From an uncultured delta proteobacterium (GTDB taxonomy: Bacteria > Desulfobacterota > Binatia > UBA9968), in contig CAWFJP010000014.1 of NCBI GenBank assembly GCA_963816145.1, positions 640,001 to 704,000 on the forward strand: a stretch of 64,000 nt of DNA, written 5' to 3'. This document shows, in pieces, positions 3,879 to 10,069 of the stretch. The position numbers and the translations under genes are program-made. The notes beneath the pieces were generated by a model that was not told where the DNA came from, did no database searches, and was given only the letters and a program-made list of their open reading frames with translations. Positions within the stretch are counted from its first letter, which is position 1. Every line of letters starts with the position of its first letter.

Positions 3879-3963
3879 GGTCAAAACTCTCACTTCAAGT
3901 CGGCGCCGGCCCAATCCCGCGACTTCGAGCCGAGGGTTGGTTAACTCGGTTGCAGGGCTCGAC

Positions 3964-4560
3964 GTGATCGCACAAATCAGCGGCAAGCTCGCGCAAAAAC
4001 AGCCCGGCGAAGTGGTCATCGACGTCGGCGGCGTCGGCTATCTGGTTCTGATACCGCTCAATGTTTTTTACCATTTGCCGGACATCGGCGCGCCGATGAG
4101 TTTGCAGATTCACACTCATGTGCGCGAGGACGCATTGCAGCTATTCGGCTTTCATGACCTCGCCGAAAAGCAGGTGTTTTTGTTGCTCATGGGTGTATCC
4201 GGTATCGGTCCCAAGTTGGCGCTCAATATTTTGTCCGGTATCCCGGCGGGAGAATTGGCGCGGGCCTTGAGAAACGGCGACCAGATGCGCTTGGTGTCGA
4301 TTCCCGGCGTCGGCAAGAAGTTGGCCGAGCGGATGATCGTCGAGTTGAAGGACAAGTTCACCAACCTGGCGCCGGTGACCATCGATAGCGCGGCCAAACC
4401 TGAGGCTTCGTCGCAAAAGATGCAGGACGCGGTTTCCGCCTTGATCAATCTAGGGTATAAAAAGCCGGAGATCGAAAAAACCGTCCGCGACGTGCTCAAG
4501 AACGGCGAGCTGTCGCTGGAAGATGTTCTGCGCGAAACCTTGCGGCAAATGGGGCATTAG
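3964..4560 (+). CDS. ruvA: Holliday junction branch migration protein RuvA
   Basis: GTG start VIAQISGKL; DVGGVGY, HVREDA, GIGPKLA, AVSALINLGY. Confidence 0.96.
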   Translation: MIAQISGKLAQKQPGEVVIDVGGVGYLVLIPLNVFYHLPDIGAPMSLQIHTHVREDALQLFGFHDLAEKQVFLLLMGVSGIGPKLALNILSGIPAGELARALRNGDQMRLVSIPGVGKKLAERMIVELKDKFTNLAPVTIDSAAKPEASSQKMQDAVSALINLGYKKPEIEKTVRDVLKNGELSLEDVLRETLRQMGH

Positions 4561-4601
4561 GCCACAAGAGTTTTGGCCTCAGAGGGCACGGAGATCACAG
4601 C

Positions 4602-4714
4602 ATCCCCCACCTTCATCCTCCCCCGCTTGCGGGGAACGAAAGAGAAGGTGGGGGGGATTAACCGCAAAGGGCGCCAAAAAGATTTCCGAAGCGGGCGGGT
4701 TTAAACCTGCCCGC
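4602..4714. repeat. Two intergenic palindromes between ruvA and ruvB
   Basis: cccccaccttc...ccccgcttgcgggg...gaaggtgggggg (about 4604-4655) and gcgggcgggtttaaacctgcccgc (4691-4714). Confidence 0.75.
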
Positions 4715-4743
4715 ATGGGTTGTAAGAAGATCACACACTGGCC

Positions 4744-5772
<1,029 letters not shown>

Positions 5773-5806
5773 AGCCGTTTGGCGGTATAATTATCGGATG
5801 AGGATC

Positions 5807-6019
5807 ATGGGCGGATTGGGCAAGACGCTAATCTCTTTCGGTATTGTGCTTGTGATCGTCGGAATACTGGTATCGTTGTCCGACAAGTTGCCGTGGCTCG
5901 GCCACCTGCCGGGGGATATCCATATCCAACGAGGACGCTTCAACTTCTATTTTCCGCTGACCACCTGCATTGTCGTCAGTGTGGTAATTTCGCTTGTCGC
6001 TTACTTATTCAAACGTTAG
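5807..6019 (+). CDS. DUF2905 family small membrane protein
   Basis: LGHLPGDI....FNFYFPLTTC signature; two hydrophobic segments. Confidence 0.88.
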   Translation: MGGLGKTLISFGIVLVIVGILVSLSDKLPWLGHLPGDIHIQRGRFNFYFPLTTCIVVSVVISLVAYLFKR

Positions 6020-6058
6020 AATTCTCGCAGTTGATTCGCCATTAATTCAACCGCGCCG

Positions 6059-8269
6059 ATGGAACCCCAAAAACTAACCCCTAGCCACGAAGCGAGCATC
6101 AAAGCCGAAGAGGCCAAAAGGCGCAAGCGCGAGGGCATCGTCATCGCGGTGGCGGCGCTGATGGTGGCGGCGTTGATCTTCTTCGAAGTACAGTCGCCGG
6201 ACATTTCTCTGGAGAATTCGCTCGGCAGCAACATCATTTTTTTCTTTATTATCAATATCAATATCATTCTGCTGGTGCTGCTGGTGTTTCTGGTGATGCG
6301 CAATCTGGTCAAGCTGGTCTTCGAACGGCGGCGCCGGATGCTCGGCTCGCGCTTGCAGTCGCGCCTGGTCTTAGCTTTCGTCGCCCTGTCGATCGTGCCG
6401 AGTCTGTTACTGTTCGCCATTGCCGGCGGCCTTTTGACCCGTTCCTTCGACCGCTGGTTTGACGCCAAGGTGGAAAGCGCGCTCCAGGGCTCCTTGGAAA
6501 TCGGTCAAACCTATTACCAAAACTCGGCCAACAACGCGATGTTTTTCGCCCGCCGGTTGAGCGAGAAGATCACTGAAGATAAACTCTTCGAGCCGGCGCG
6601 GCGGGTCGATCTGCGCCGGCTGGTCGAGGAAAAACAGCGCGACTATAACCTCGGTACCGTGGAGGTCTACTCAGCGGACGGTACCGCCATTGTTGCGGTG
6701 AGCGACAAGTCGAAGAGCGGCATAGACTTGAAGCCCGACGGGGAATTCTTGGCGCGCGCGTTGCGCGGCGTCGGCGTGACTTGGACCCAGCCGCTGGGCG
6801 AAGGCGATGTGATTCGCGGCGGCGCGCCGATCTTTGGCGCCGAGAAGCGCATCGTCGGCGTCGCGGTGGTCGACTATCATGTGCCCAAGAGTTTGACCAA
6901 CCGGGCGAAGCAAATTTCGGAATCCTACGAGCAATACAAGTACTTAACCTTTCTTAAGGCGCCGGTTAAGAACAGCTACATCTTGACGCTGTTTCTGATC
7001 ACTCTGGTAATCATGTTTTCCGCGACCTGGTGGGGTTTTTATCTTTCCAAGGGCATTACCGTGCCAATCCAAAAACTCGCCGAGGGGACTCATGAGGTCG
7101 CCCAGGGCAATTGGGACTATAAAATTGAAACCAGCGGCGACGATGAGATCGGTGTCTTGGTCCAGTCGTTCAATCAGATGACGGGCGACTTAAAGCAAAT
7201 AACCCTGGAGCTCGAACGGCGCGGCAAGGTGGTCCAAACCTTACTCGCCAATATCGCCGCGGGCGTGGTTTCGGTGGATCCGGCGGAAAAGATAACTACG
7301 TGGAATAAGGCCGCCGAACAGATGCTCGGGGTCAAATCCGAGCAGGCGTTGGCGAAGAATTACCGCGAGGTCTTGCAGCCGGAACACTTGCGCGTGGTCG
7401 CCGAGATCATCGATAGCGTCAAGGATCGGGAAAAGATCGAGCGTGAGATCAAGATCCCGCAGCATGAGCAGCTACTGACGGCGGTGGTGACGGCGGCGAC
7501 CCTGCGCGACGACGACGGCTCGGCGCTGGGAGTCATGGTTTTTCTCGAAGACATTACGCAAATCCAAAAAGTGCAGCGCATGGAGGCCTGGCGCGAAGTG
7601 GCGCGGCGCATAGCCCATGAGATCAAGAATCCCCTGACGCCGATCCAGCTATCGGCCGAGCGGCTGCGCAAACGCTACGCCAGTATGCTCGGCGGCGACG
7701 GCGGCATCTTGGACAAATGCACGACGACGATCATACAGCAGGTCGAAGAACTCAAGAGCCTGGTCAACGAGTTCTCCCAGTTCGCCCGGCTACCGTCAGC
7801 GAAGCTGGCAACTCAGGACCTCAATGAAATCGTCAATGAAGCGCTTTTTCTTTTCAATGAGGCACACAAAGGTATACAATTTCGTTTCCAGCCCGGAGTG
7901 ATTCCGACGTTGGATTTGGACCGCGATCAGATCAAGCGGGTGCTGATCAATCTGCTCGACAACGCTGTGGCGGCGGTGCAAAATGATGGCGAGATCAGGC
8001 TCTCGACGCATTACAATCGGGGGCGCGGCGTGGTGACGTTGGATGTCGCCGATAACGGCAGCGGTTTGGCGCCGGAGATGCGCACGAAAATATTCGAACC
8101 GTATTTTTCGACCAAGGAAAACGGCACCGGCTTGGGGCTGACCATCGTCAGTCAAATCATCGAGGATCATCGCGGCTATATCCGGGCGTTGCCCAACGAG
8201 CCCAAGGGGACGCGGTTTAGCATTGAATTTCCCGCTTCAGAGGTTGCCAAACGAGCGGCGCATTCGTAA
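6059..8269 (+). CDS. ntrY: NtrY-like membrane sensor histidine kinase (TMs, periplasmic domain, HAMP, PAS, HisKA, HATPase)
   Basis: GSRLQSRLVLAF, DRWF, HAMP DDEIG.L..SFNQM, AWREVARRIAHEIKNPLTPIQLSAERL, NLLDNA, GTGLGL. Confidence 0.9.
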   Translation: MEPQKLTPSHEASIKAEEAKRRKREGIVIAVAALMVAALIFFEVQSPDISLENSLGSNIIFFFIININIILLVLLVFLVMRNLVKLVFERRRRMLGSRLQSRLVLAFVALSIVPSLLLFAIAGGLLTRSFDRWFDAKVESALQGSLEIGQTYYQNSANNAMFFARRLSEKITEDKLFEPARRVDLRRLVEEKQRDYNLGTVEVYSADGTAIVAVSDKSKSGIDLKPDGEFLARALRGVGVTWTQPLGEGDVIRGGAPIFGAEKRIVGVAVVDYHVPKSLTNRAKQISESYEQYKYLTFLKAPVKNSYILTLFLITLVIMFSATWWGFYLSKGITVPIQKLAEGTHEVAQGNWDYKIETSGDDEIGVLVQSFNQMTGDLKQITLELERRGKVVQTLLANIAAGVVSVDPAEKITTWNKAAEQMLGVKSEQALAKNYREVLQPEHLRVVAEIIDSVKDREKIEREIKIPQHEQLLTAVVTAATLRDDDGSALGVMVFLEDITQIQKVQRMEAWREVARRIAHEIKNPLTPIQLSAERLRKRYASMLGGDGGILDKCTTTIIQQVEELKSLVNEFSQFARLPSAKLATQDLNEIVNEALFLFNEAHKGIQFRFQPGVIPTLDLDRDQIKRVLINLLDNAVAAVQNDGEIRLSTHYNRGRGVVTLDVADNGSGLAPEMRTKIFEPYFSTKENGTGLGLTIVSQIIEDHRGYIRALPNEPKGTRFSIEFPASEVAKRAAHS

Positions 8270-8281
8270 CTTGGAGGTCGG

Positions 8282-9568
8282 GTGGAAGAGCTGGCGGTTA
8301 ACAAAACTATCTTAGTTGTCGACGACGAAGACGACGTGCGCGAGTCGGTGCGCGAAGTGCTGCGCGACGAAGGTTACCGCGTCGTCGATACCGCCGACGG
8401 CACCCATGTGCTCGAATTGATCCGTCAGGAACGGCCCGAGTTGGTTTTGCTCGATATCTGGATGCCCCAAGTCGACGGCATCGGTTTGCTCAAGGAAATC
8501 AAGACTCAGGAGCCAGAGCTCAATGTCGTCATGGTGTCCGGCCATGGCAATATTCATACGGCGGTGACCGCGACCAAATTCGGCGCCTTTGATTTTCTCG
8601 AGAAGCCGGTTTCTCTAGAGGGCCTTCTATTAACCGTGCAGCGGGCCTTGGGCGAATCGTCGAGTTCGGCGGCCCAGCACAGCCGTGCCAAGAGTAAAGC
8701 CGGTGCGGCTAAGCGCGGTGCGGCGCCTGCGACGGCGACCCGAATCAAGCAAAAGACTTTAAAAAAAAGCGTCGTCTTGTCCGGCCAAGGGCTGCATTCG
8801 GGAGTGAAGACCGGATTGATCCTGCATCCGTTGCCGCCCAACAGCGGCATTCGTTTCACCGGCATTTCCGGCGAAGTGGCGGTGCCTGCGCACTTGGATT
8901 ATGTCGGCTCGACCGGCTATGCAACTTCATTGCGCACGCAAGGTTTCGCCGTCGGCACTGTCGAGCATTTGCTCGCCGTCCTGCACAGCTATGGGATTGG
9001 CAATCTGCTCATCAAAGTTCACGGTGAGGTGCCGATCCTCGACGGCTCGGCGCTGGAATTTTGCCAAGCCATCGATGAAGCGGGCATTCAGCTGGAAGAC
9101 GAGGAAGTCGCCGAGATCGTCATCAACCGCGCTTATCGGGTCGAAGCCAAGGGAGGCGAGTCCATCGCCATCGAACCGGCGGACGGTTTCTCGGTGCATT
9201 ACGAACTGCGTTATCCCAATCCAGTGGGCGAACAACAATACTTGTATCGTCACCACGGCGCCGAATCGTTTCGCGAGGAGATCGCACCGGCTCGGACCTT
9301 TGGCTTTCTCAAGGACATCGCCAAGCTTCAGACCATGGGGCTGGCCAACGGCGGACGGCTGAGTAATTTTATCTTGATCGACGACGAGAAGATTGTGAAC
9401 ACCGAGTTGCGCTTCGCCGACGAATTGGCGCGCCACAAGATTCTCGATATTCTCGGCGACTTCTATTTGCTCGGCAGACCGCTTCGCGGTGCGATCCGCG
9501 CGCGCATGACCGGCCACTCGGACAATATCGCGCTGTTGCGCAAGGTCCGCGAAGGCATGAAGCTGTGA
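8282..9568 (+). CDS. lpxC: Fusion: response-regulator receiver domain + UDP-3-O-acyl-GlcNAc deacetylase LpxC
   Basis: REC motifs VVDDE, LLDIWMP, SGHG, EKP; Ala/Lys linker; LpxC motifs QKTL, GQGLHSG, TVEHLL, EVPILDGSA, EIAPARTFGF, RHKILD..GD, GH..N. Confidence 0.92.
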   Translation: MEELAVNKTILVVDDEDDVRESVREVLRDEGYRVVDTADGTHVLELIRQERPELVLLDIWMPQVDGIGLLKEIKTQEPELNVVMVSGHGNIHTAVTATKFGAFDFLEKPVSLEGLLLTVQRALGESSSSAAQHSRAKSKAGAAKRGAAPATATRIKQKTLKKSVVLSGQGLHSGVKTGLILHPLPPNSGIRFTGISGEVAVPAHLDYVGSTGYATSLRTQGFAVGTVEHLLAVLHSYGIGNLLIKVHGEVPILDGSALEFCQAIDEAGIQLEDEEVAEIVINRAYRVEAKGGESIAIEPADGFSVHYELRYPNPVGEQQYLYRHHGAESFREEIAPARTFGFLKDIAKLQTMGLANGGRLSNFILIDDEKIVNTELRFADELARHKILDILGDFYLLGRPLRGAIRARMTGHSDNIALLRKVREGMKL

Positions 9569-9625
9569 CGGTCACTGAGCCGTGGATGATTGCTCGGCCC
9601 TCTGAGATTTTGCAGGACGCCTGAA

Positions 9626-10069
9626 ATGGACGCCAATTTTCCCCGACTGTTCACGGTTAACGAAGCCAACGGACTCTTGCCGATGTTACGGCCGCTGGTC
9701 GAGCAAATCCTGGAAAACATCCGGCGCTTGAAGGGTGTTAGCGAAACCGTGATCCGGCGCGAGCAACTTGACCCCGATGCGCCCAATCTGATGGAACGCT
9801 TGCGCGAGGACAAAGAGGTCTTGAAGCTGGTGACGCAAATCAAGGACTGGGTCGAGGCGATCAATGGCCATGGCTGCGTGTGCAAGGGCGTCGAACAGGG
9901 ATTGATCGATTTCCCGTGCATGCTCGGTTCCGAAGTGGTATTTCTCTGCTGGCAGATCGGCGAAGCCAACGTGGCGCACTATCATCGCATCGAAGACGGC
10001 TTCGCCGGGCGCAAGACTTTGCTCGACGATGGGAGCGCGGAGCCGGATAGTAAGATCTCCTATCACTGA
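9626..10069 (+). CDS. DUF2203 family protein
   Basis: FTVNEANGLLP, GLIDFP, LCWQIGE, YH..EDGFAGR. Confidence 0.87.
   Translation: MDANFPRLFTVNEANGLLPMLRPLVEQILENIRRLKGVSETVIRREQLDPDAPNLMERLREDKEVLKLVTQIKDWVEAINGHGCVCKGVEQGLIDFPCMLGSEVVFLCWQIGEANVAHYHRIEDGFAGRKTLLDDGSAEPDSKISYH

Follow-up and report, generated by a model that had tools for sequence, protein, structure and literature searches.

LpxC, which catalyses the committed and rate-setting step in the synthesis of lipid A, has long been pursued as a target for antibiotics. How it is regulated is under active study, and the prevailing model, from enterobacteria, is proteolysis, in which LpxC of the E. coli type is controlled by FtsH/LapB/YejM. 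A different mode of enzyme control is represented by CheB, in which the catalytic domain is inhibited by a receiver docked on it until phosphorylation lifts the block. In D. vulgaris, lpxC is the one target mapped for the NtrC-type regulator DVU2934 (PMC3333781), and loss of NtrYX in R. sphaeroides raises the level of lpxC mRNA 8.8-fold (PMC7240162). A 2025 review, in the sections considered here, describes two-component control of LpxC at the transcriptional level only and calls it non-specific (PMC12444477). The target lpxC is what these published NtrYX- and NtrC-type systems, in the passages cited, have in common with the locus described below (PMC3333781, PMC7240162, PMC12444477).

The window, i.e. 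the whole 64,000-nt stretch of DNA analysed here, carries this locus on its plus strand. A gene encoding an NtrY-like sensor histidine kinase of 736 aa (6059..8269) is followed, after a gap of 12 nt (8270..8281), by a single gene of 428 aa with a GTG start (8282..9568), recognized from the ORF list and profile searches. These coordinates agree with the initial annotation, according to which the kinase ends 12 nt ahead of one 428-aa ORF. Direct reading of the DNA revealed a GGAGG Shine-Dalgarno sequence in the gap (8273-8277), 4 nt ahead of the GTG, and the kinase and fusion genes form one operon-like unit. The product of the latter is composed of a receiver (REC) domain (residues 10-119; 8309..8638; PF00072), a low-complexity linker rich in Ala, Lys and Ser (residues ~124-153; 8651..8740) and a complete LpxC deacetylase domain (residues 154-428; 8741..9565). 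The linker is read in frame and contains no stop codon and no in-frame ATG or GTG, as had been proposed for the junction; the sole in-frame alternative start, a TTG at L123, is not preceded by a Shine-Dalgarno sequence. The Ala/Lys linker of ~30 aa described earlier is predicted to be disordered (AF2 pLDDT <50 at residues 127-150), and alignment with long forms shows it to be the remnant left at the site where relatives have AAA+ and HTH modules.

The receiver matches the Pfam Response_reg profile with 109.2 bits (cutoff 30.2; E 1.6e-31). Its phosphorylation set is complete, just as the initial annotation had claimed for this NtrX-like domain: D14/D15, the phospho-acceptor D58 in LLDIWMP (codon 8453-8455), S86 in SGHG and K108 in EKP are all present in the translation. 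The best NCBIfam match of the receiver is NtrX, and its best matches among solved structures are 4d6x and 5m7n, the latter deposited as 'Nitrogen assimilation regulatory protein'; we take both to be Brucella NtrX. However, the NtrX model NF051870 is matched with only 140.8 bits against a cutoff of 600, over model positions 3-157 of 452, and, in contrast to NtrX, the protein has neither AAA+ nor HTH in a Pfam search. Judged from these profiles, it is an NtrX derivative, and not a member of the NtrX/NtrC-family enhancer-binding proteins.

The LpxC (UDP-3-O-acyl-GlcNAc deacetylase) part is recognized by Pfam PF03331 at residues 157-422 (E 8.4e-82, 275 bits versus a cutoff of 27) and by NCBIfam TIGR00325 (246 bits versus 187). 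The earlier description of a complete LpxC with intact zinc-binding and catalytic residues holds, with the motifs TVEH (226-229), HKILD (385-389) and GH (411-412) in place and both profiles above their cutoffs. The domain contains E228/H229, T339/F340, H385/K386/D389/D393 and H412. When aligned with solved LpxC structures, E228/H229, H385/K386/D389, D393 and H412 fall on the motifs that these share with it. We take the E-H pair of TVEH, the H, K and D of HKxLD, the Asp of GD and the His of GH to be the zinc-binding and catalytic positions. The AF2 model of the domain superimposes on Aquifex LpxC with a TM-score of 0.96 (rmsd ~1.3 A), and on the solved LpxCs with target-normalised TM-scores of 0.84-0.96 (rmsd 1.3-2 A, ~275 columns), so the predicted fold is that of LpxC. 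Enzymes of the Pseudomonas and E. coli type extend ~25 residues further at the C-terminus, and this stretch has no counterpart here: the TIGR00325 match spans model positions 1-273 of 297 only, and the alignment with a solved LpxC covers chain residues 6-279 of 305. The genome, which is 99.5% complete, yielded a single PF03331 match, which answers the earlier question of whether this is its only lpxC. LpxB and LpxK were also found there, and their presence suggests that a lipid A pathway exists in this organism. As the sole LpxC, the fusion protein is predicted to act as the deacetylase of that pathway.

The kinase shares with NtrY the NtrY_N-HAMP-PAS-HisKA-HATPase_c layout, these domains having been detected by Pfam (NtrY_N with 32.7 bits versus a cutoff of 23.2) together with an N-terminal membrane region. 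It is referred to here only as NtrY-like, because it reached no NCBIfam equivalog cutoff. Whereas the output of NtrYX is transcriptional, LpxC is the only output in the protein from the window, and since enzyme and receiver are covalently joined, this control cannot operate at the level of transcription. The closest analogue in layout is CheB, likewise a receiver, a flexible linker and a hydrolase domain in one polypeptide. The window protein was modelled by AF2 with a pTM of 0.83, and a subfamily member 46% identical to it with a pTM of 0.88, the disordered linkers notwithstanding; our own estimate for independently placed domains, which is not a tool output, is ~0.64. These models suggest a fixed arrangement of receiver and LpxC, which may be a further likeness to CheB. 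On the other hand, CheB is a methylesterase, unrelated in fold and chemistry to the zinc deacetylase of the window protein, whose receiver is of the NtrC/NtrX lineage and whose NCBIfam CheB match covers the receiver only (72 bits versus 293). With the E. coli FtsH/LapB/YejM system the proposed control shares the regulated step, the committed enzyme being controlled post-translationally in both cases. In E. coli, however, this occurs by adaptor-mediated degradation of an enzyme with the C-terminal tail region that the window protein lacks, whereas here a fused domain would receive the input through its phosphorylation. LpxC/FabZ (PRK13188) is another case in which LpxC occurs naturally fused to a further domain, but its partner is a metabolic enzyme at the C-terminus, as opposed to a signalling domain at the N-terminus. 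The window protein does not belong to that family (NF009667, 204.8 bits versus 465, LpxC part only).

The fused state of the gene is well documented and goes far beyond what chance would produce. Both Pfam domains are present in all of the best 120 database relatives (75-99% identity). The initial annotation had called for a check of coverage at 8600-8800, and independent metagenome contigs do span this junction: a contig from another study covers 7900-9700 with 10 substitutions and no gaps, one from a second run covers 8198-8949, and an RNA-library contig matches 8605-8755 exactly. Within the phylum, the receiver lies upstream of LpxC on the same strand at 75 of 75 loci, in one frame at 74 of them. 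An A8 run at ~8761-8768 could in principle mask a homopolymer length error, but it is located downstream of the junction, inside the conserved LpxC N-terminus (KTLKKS), and contigs from two independent DNA runs contained no insertions or deletions. The joining of two separate genes by an assembly or gene-calling artefact is therefore effectively refuted by the relatives, the independent contigs and the phylum loci, and we regard it as practically negligible.

A search for the REC plus LpxC architecture in related genomes, also proposed earlier, revealed fused lpxC genes in 76 of the 301 genomes sampled from the phylum (named in the sources Thermodesulfobacteriota/Desulfobacterota, and Binatia). 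Of the proteins they encode, 51 are short REC-LpxC forms (including that of the window) and 25 are long REC-AAA+-HTH-LpxC forms. No second LpxC was detected in 74 of the 76 genomes, counting matches at E <= 1e-35. We found no description of a REC-LpxC fusion in the literature, in line with the earlier statement that no characterised example was known, and this is apparently a conserved, undescribed design.

Among 288 complete fused proteins, the acceptor Asp is kept in 286, K108 in 287, S/T86 in all 288 and D15 in 287, and each of the five phosphorylation residues is kept in 284-288; the seven catalytic and zinc residues of LpxC are present in 288/288. This pattern indicates that selection acts on the phosphorylation chemistry, in proteins down to ~40% identity. 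The acceptor is replaced by Asn in P0137 and by Ser in P0147, and since these two members lack it, some LpxC lineages evidently work without receiver phosphorylation.

The long forms and unfused relatives make it possible to trace the origin of the fusion. In unfused relatives the cluster order is lpxC-DUF4390-ntrY-ntrX: at 9 of 20 loci, ntrY is closely preceded by a stand-alone lpxC of the same orientation, in 7 of which the regulator then follows, and DUF4390 separates lpxC from ntrY in 3/3 unfused clusters checked. GAFTGA is intact in 9 and the Walker B DE in 10 of 11 unfused regulators. The unfused, ancestor-type regulator is thus a canonical sigma-54 activator with intact GAFTGA, rather than a strict GAFTGA-less NtrX. 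In contrast, neither motif is retained in any of 15 fused long forms (0/15 each). Full-length REC-AAA+-HTH-LpxC proteins do exist, with Sigma54_activat, AAA_lid_14 and HTH_8 recognizable in long relatives. Selection clearly treats the receiver and the AAA+ module differently. There are also REC-HTH-LpxC intermediates (P0138 and P0126), and the intermediate P0138, like P0124 and P0144, has an HTH_8 match above the cutoff.

In the LpxC tree, the domains from fused proteins fall into a single clade (SH-aLRT 96), in which short and long forms are interleaved (e.g. P0138 groups with P0144, support 100) and the earliest-branching fused groups are short forms; the receiver tree does not resolve the branching order. 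The direction from long to short is thus drawn from the nested cases, the intermediates and the parsimony of deletion, not from the tree root. From the decayed long forms, the intermediates and the unfused activators it follows that the regulator was fused to LpxC, and that its transcription module decayed and was then repeatedly deleted. The protein goes back to a REC-AAA+-HTH regulator in genetic linkage with lpxC, with decay and then loss of the module after fusion. The initial annotation had proposed deletion of AAA+/HTH from an ancestral ntrY-ntrX-lpxC operon. The loss of the module is borne out by the long forms, the intermediates and the interleaving; the gene order is not, and given the order lpxC-DUF4390-ntrY-ntrX the fusion was not a simple read-through of neighbouring genes.

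The linkage of the kinase was another point raised for follow-up. The kinase gene lies immediately upstream of the fused gene at 11/11 same-genus loci and at 20 of 75 phylum loci, including 9/9 from the class of the window. At the other 55 it is not adjacent, and the pairing there is therefore inferred. Full-length orthologues (34-67% identity) either adjoin the fused gene or sit elsewhere in the genome; in all five non-adjacent genomes examined, a single full-length NtrY-like kinase was encoded elsewhere, and the 1.5 kb around it contained no gene for a receiver (5/5). The kinase is also ~45% identical to kinases that, in records from Geobacter and Desulfuromusa, precede NtrX-like regulators of the unfused type. 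Among the matches listed for the window's own genome, the next-best receivers are 34-41% identical, whereas unfused orthologue-type receivers show 53-57% identity.

We suggest that LpxC is probably the output domain of a two-component system, in which the kinase phosphorylates the receiver and so alters the activity of the sole LpxC. This arrangement suggests that a sensor kinase acts as a direct switch on the making of outer-membrane lipid. For such a putative tuning of LpxC by phosphorylation there is indirect support from the nearly invariant phosphorylation residues and from the linkage to the kinase. The NtrY-like membrane kinase would sense an envelope or redox signal and phosphorylate D58. 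According to prediction, the receiver, held on a flexible tether of ~30 residues, docks onto the LpxC domain, and phosphorylation, by analogy to CheB-type enzymes, would alter this packing and thereby the activity of the cell's only LpxC and the lipid A flux. Phosphorylation may raise LpxC activity, a sign that we prefer because the regulator goes back to a sigma-54 activator. As LpxC is usually essential and only one is present, the control must spare basal activity, which limits switch-like behaviour.

It is also conceivable, but rather unlikely, that phosphorylation sets the amount or location of LpxC and not its catalytic rate, the receiver being a regulated degron, an adaptor-docking or a dimerisation module; such a mechanism would, with equally low probability, replace the C-terminal-tail/FtsH-LapB route of E. 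coli. NtrC-family receivers commonly change their dimer state upon phosphorylation. Moreover, the LpxC domain lacks the last ~25 residues that enzymes of the Pseudomonas and E. coli type possess, the genome contains five FtsH-type peptidase M41 genes, and proteolysis is the dominant known control of LpxC in the passages of the review cited (PMC12444477). However, neither a degron nor a partner adaptor or protease came to light; the LapB zinc ribbon profile PF18073 did match a 107-aa frame in the same genome, but in a control it was positive in 10 of 14 genomes, Gram-positives included. The high pTM of the models would fit an intramolecular contact at least as well.

That the receiver is a leftover serving folding, solubility or scaffolding, with LpxC constitutive and the kinase signalling elsewhere or nowhere, seems improbable. 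Parts of this family do turn vestigial, as the post-fusion decay of AAA+ demonstrates (GAFTGA and the Walker B DE each in 0/15), the acceptor Asp is absent from two members, and the kinase is unlinked at 55/75 loci. Against this, conservation of the five phosphorylation residues ranges from 284 to 288 of 288 proteins while the AAA+ motifs were lost in 15/15, the receiver was retained at all 75 phylum loci despite repeated deletion of AAA+/HTH, and none of the five unlinked kinases has another receiver gene beside it. Still less credible is a reversed flow of information, in which occupancy of LpxC by substrate or product alters (de)phosphorylation of the receiver, so that the protein would serve the kinase as a phosphate sink or for feedback sensing. 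Single-domain and enzyme-linked receivers are known as phosphate sinks, and a second output could exist in those long forms whose HTH exceeds the Pfam cutoff; the short form, however, has no other output domain, no second regulator lies beside the kinase, and as the only LpxC the protein must have a primarily catalytic role.

If LpxC is indeed the output domain of its fused receiver, this would be the first LpxC regulated via phosphorylation of such a domain, and a rare documented case of a transcription factor that has become an allosteric domain within the product of its own target; HTH-bearing long forms could then be bifunctional, combining DNA binding with catalysis. On balance, it seems that a large lineage (~1/4 of the sampled Thermodesulfobacteriota/Binatia genomes) has short-circuited a two-component pathway. 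A conserved family of this kind, in which the receiver is joined to the sole LpxC, would add a new mode of LpxC control. The NtrYX-LpxC link in alphaproteobacteria is indirect only, and the fusion would constitute 'Rosetta-stone' evidence that LpxC is a specific physiological target of NtrYX-type systems. REC-LpxC would also provide a clean testable system, with one polypeptide and one kinase, for the route from envelope signals to LPS flux. The graded series from unfused activator through full fusion with decayed ATPase motifs and REC-HTH-LpxC to REC-LpxC amounts to an unusually complete record of the rewiring of a signalling protein through fusion and domain loss.

The fusion and kinase genes are flanked by two further plus-strand genes. 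Directly 5' of the kinase lies a gene for a small DUF2905 membrane protein (5699..6019; PF11146, E 2.6e-24), whose place upstream of the kinase is taken by DUF4390 in 3/3 unfused clusters. Downstream of the fusion gene there is a DUF2203 gene (9590..10069; PF09969, E 2.3e-32), found in the same position at 9 of 11 same-genus loci (the other two end earlier) and at locus L031; throughout the genus and family, DUF2203 is conserved as the neighbour on the downstream side.

The sensor kinase ORF (736 aa, 6059..8269, forward strand) carries NtrY_N (32.7 bits, cutoff 23.2), HAMP, PAS, HisKA and HATPase_c domains in Pfam and is NtrY-like, as proposed in the initial annotation, which had also placed it just before a single 428-aa ORF. 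In the DNA sequence the kinase stop codon (8267-8269) is followed by a Shine-Dalgarno GGAGG (8273-8277) and the GTG start (8282) of the latter (8282..9568), all on the forward strand. Pfam assigns residues 10-119 of the 428-aa protein to Response_reg (E 1.6e-31) and residues 157-422 to LpxC (E 8.4e-82). The full phosphorylation set attributed to the receiver is present, i.e. D14/D15, D58 (codon 8453-8455), S86 and K108, and so are the LpxC motifs TVEH (226-229), HKILD (385-389) and GH (411-412). The protein scores 246 bits against the NCBIfam lpxC equivalog TIGR00325 (cutoff 187). Its LpxC part aligns with chain residues 6-279 of 305 of a solved Pseudomonas LpxC and with chain residues 3-267 of Aquifex LpxC, and in the AF2 model it matches solved LpxCs with a target-normalised TM of up to 0.96. 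A structure search with this model found no solved chain spanning both receiver and LpxC (query-normalised TM at most 0.62). Judged by sequence, the fusion protein is a genuine LpxC joined to a genuine receiver.

Read in frame, the linker contains neither a stop codon nor ATG, as described initially, nor GTG, and release of a free LpxC from an internal translation start is therefore unlikely. The sole in-frame TTG (L123), which has no Shine-Dalgarno sequence, is also an unlikely start. Fourteen DNA sequencing runs from 13 studies contain 80% or more of the words sampled from the region 7900-9700. Among the four runs compared, none showed insertions or deletions in this region; one contig of run X2 covers all of it with 10 substitutions and no gaps, one contig of run X1 covers 8198-8949, and both span the junction (8600-8800). 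A 151-nt contig from the RNA library X15 is an exact match to 8605-8755, the receiver-linker-LpxC junction, although the RNA-run contigs on 7900-9700 are short and such a contig is not proof of transcription or of co-transcription with the kinase. The fusion gene is confirmed as genuine. A run of eight A residues (8761-8768) lies within the conserved LpxC N-terminus (KTLKKS); two independent DNA runs have G instead of A at 8761, which shortens it, and no length variation of the run was seen in the DNA runs.

The fusion gene is the only PF03331 match in the genome, an assembly of 7.82 Mb in 31 contigs with 99.5% completeness and 6.7% contamination, and LpxB and LpxK each have one match above cutoff there. 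Both Pfam domains are present in each of the protein's 120 best relatives, which are 422-435 aa long and 75-99% identical to it. Where the sources name them, they are plain 'LpxC', from Candidatus Binatia, 'Deltaproteobacteria', Acidobacteriota or Terriglobales MAGs. Among 41 genomes of the same order (including the unpublished G005), 34 gave a full-length match, 6 an incomplete one at the end of a contig and one (G019, 91% complete) no match. The architecture, which was to be looked for in related genomes, recurs at the phylum level: an LpxC match at E <= 1e-35 was found in 284 of 301 sampled genomes, and lpxC is fused in 76 of the 301, the window's included, across 22 family codes. Apart from the window's, there were 75 candidate loci, and all were classified. 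A receiver is present at every one, 50 being short forms (REC-LpxC, spacers of 16-56 residues) and 25 long forms (REC-AAA+-LpxC, spacers of 284-341 residues). The fused gene is the sole LpxC match at this threshold in 74 of the 76 genomes. The other two, G074 and G239 (also locus L019), have a second match, which in G074 is of ordinary length (330-aa frame). The fused copy of G074 diverges more than any other observed (41-43% identity); a paralogous division of labour is possible in both.

Pfam detects Response_reg, Sigma54_activat, AAA_lid_14 and LpxC in the long forms. HTH_8 exceeds its 22-bit cutoff in the representative proteins P0124, P0144 and P0138. The 120 proteins most similar to the long form P0122 all contain LpxC, Sigma54_activat and AAA_lid; they originate from Thermodesulfobacteriota or Desulfobacterota and are named 'NtrX' or 'LpxC' by their sources. 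After 50% clustering, the 150 best representatives sorted by domain content into 49 REC+LpxC (many of them fragments), 15 REC+AAA+LpxC, 5 AAA+LpxC (N-terminally incomplete), 72 LpxC only and 9 receiver only. A profile scan of named genomes gave, among the matches listed, ordinary LpxCs and three receiver-only matches. At one locus (L166, G309:C86, about 5900-6300 of the locus) a long-form gene is frameshifted inside an already degenerate AAA+ module, the receiver and first AAA+ part lying in one frame and the remaining AAA+ and LpxC in another; possible explanations are misassembly, a pseudogene, or a stage on the way to a split or deleted module.

The fusion had been suggested to derive from an ntrY-ntrX-lpxC operon by deletion of the AAA+/HTH part. 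Deletion is supported by the long forms and by intermediates, i.e. P0138 (491 aa) and P0126 (505 aa), in which only an HTH-like segment is left between receiver and LpxC, but the proposed ancestral order is not the one observed: unfused loci read lpxC-DUF4390-ntrY-ntrX, versus ntrY-ntrX::lpxC in the fused ones. Of 20 stand-alone lpxC genes, taken from different families within the phylum, 9 have an NtrY-like kinase close downstream and in the same orientation, and in 7 of these the kinase is in turn followed by the regulator. Since stand-alone lpxC loci also carry kinase and regulator, the association of lpxC with ntrYX predates the fusion. A DUF4390 gene was found by Pfam between lpxC and kinase in all three loci checked (L124, 6947-7519; L126, 5204-5788; L137, 5375-6076) and may encode an accessory component of NtrYX-type systems; in its place the window has a DUF2905 gene (5699-6019) upstream of the kinase. 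Geobacter and Desulfuromusa records show a kinase about 45% identical to the window's over its whole length, followed by an unfused REC-AAA+-HTH regulator whose receiver is 53-57% identical to that of the fusion protein. GAFTGA is intact in 9 and the Walker B DE in 10 of 11 unfused regulators, and neither is intact in any of the 15 fused long forms, in which Walker A is mostly kept.

The LpxC-domain tree comprised 89 rows (40 short, 19 long, 30 stand-alone), after removal of incomplete LpxC domains, the five AAA+LpxC fragments, and stand-alones longer than 340 aa, starting after residue 25 or past the first 30. Every fused form falls within one clade (SH-aLRT 96), in which short and long forms are interleaved: P0138 groups with P0144 (support 100), P0137 lies within P0124/P0147 (support 100), and at least seven changes of the short label are forced by the starred branches alone. 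Four 'stand-alone' rows nested in this clade (P0165, P0170, P0200 and P0236) may be truncated gene calls or secondary fissions. As the earliest-branching fused groups are short forms, the long-to-short direction rests on the nested pairs, the intermediates and the implausibility of re-inserting AAA+-HTH in the right order. A tree of the receiver domains (69 rows, 130 columns) is poorly resolved; unfused receivers do not form one clade, yet the starred branches allow one. In our reading, a sigma-54 activator tied to lpxC would have become fused to LpxC, and its transcription machinery would have decayed and then been deleted several times, the window protein being one end product.

Conservation was scored in 288 complete fused proteins, a redundant set gathered by similarity to two queries. 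The receiver residues were kept in 284 (D14, four Glu), 287 (D15), 286 (D58), 288 (S/T86) and 287 (K108) of them, and LpxC E228, H229, H385, K386, D389, D393 and H412 were each kept in all 288. Set against the AAA+ motifs, intact in 0 of 15, this retention indicates selection acting specifically on the phosphorylation site. The two exceptions at D58 are the short P0137 (Asn) and the long P0147 (Ser), the latter having lost D14, D15 and K108 too; both resemble naturally occurring variants that do not depend on phosphorylation, which would be useful for comparison.

Kinase synteny held within the genus (11 of 11 loci) and the class (9/9), but not across the phylum, where the kinase adjoins the fusion gene at 20 of 75 loci (beyond the class, in f61, 7/7; f43, 2/2; f14, 1/1; f81, 1/1) and is non-adjacent at the other 55. 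All five non-adjacent genomes tested have one full-length NtrY-like kinase elsewhere (34-47% identity), and the 1.5 kb on either side of it contain no receiver gene. Other receivers in the window's genome are, among the matches listed, 34-41% identical, and therefore no unfused partner of orthologue grade is visible there.

The initial interpretation of LpxC as the output domain of a two-component system is supported and can be sharpened. We propose a CheB-like control, in which the receiver would pack on the LpxC domain; once the NtrY-like kinase had phosphorylated D58, this packing and, in turn, LpxC activity would change. Activation by phosphorylation would be the favoured sign, because the ancestor was an activator. 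AF2 modelled the window protein with mean pLDDT 88.2 and pTM 0.83 (62-row alignment; linker 127-150 below pLDDT 50), and the 46%-identical L020 protein, with its 16-residue spacer, with pLDDT 88.2 and pTM 0.88 (13-row alignment). By our own estimate, pTM would be about 0.64 if a 125-residue domain were placed freely beside one of 275 residues, so the models suggest a defined contact between receiver and LpxC. Complex prediction of the separated receiver (1-126) and LpxC domain (151-428) gave ipSAE values of 0.01 and 0.00 (mark 0.32), which weigh neither for nor against such a contact. The grounds for a direct phospho-control of LpxC are good but fall short of proof, the main rival being a receiver-dependent mechanism acting on LpxC stability. 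The LpxC part lacks the C-terminal tail, which argues against degron control of the E. coli type. The LapB zinc ribbon PF18073 had a single match in the window's genome (107-aa frame), a poor test, as the control matched 10 of 14 genomes, including Gram-positives.

Links between such systems and lpxC are described in two papers. In D. vulgaris, the single target of the NtrC-type regulator DVU2934, which shares an operon with the kinase DVU2931, is lpxC, and in S. fumaroxidans lpxC adjoins the orthologous operon (PMC3333781). R. sphaeroides without NtrYX has 8.8-fold more lpxC mRNA, an effect considered indirect because no NtrX site is reported upstream of lpxC (PMC7240162). The words 'fusion', 'fused' and 'receiver' do not occur in the excerpted text of a review (PMC12444477). 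Consistent with the view that no example has been characterised, no description of a receiver-LpxC or NtrX-LpxC fusion was found in the main text of openly accessible articles; the combination may already stand, without comment, in database domain-architecture listings. NtrX is the top receiver-level NCBIfam match (141 bits, receiver part only), but the cutoff is 600 and the fusion protein is not a member; it can be placed, as a new variant, among response regulators whose output domain is an enzyme, a class already known.

Downstream of the fusion gene lie a DUF2203 gene (PF09969 in Pfam, 9590-10069, forward strand) and then QueG. DUF2203 follows the fusion gene in 9 of 11 same-genus loci (L003-L013), the remaining two loci stopping short; it also adjoins the fusion gene in L031, from another genus, and was not seen beside it in more distant lineages. 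Upstream of the DUF2905 and kinase genes are those for RuvA and RuvB (3937-5772). The order RuvA-RuvB-kinase-fusion recurs in L031 and partly in L014, which indicates a neighbourhood conserved across the class.
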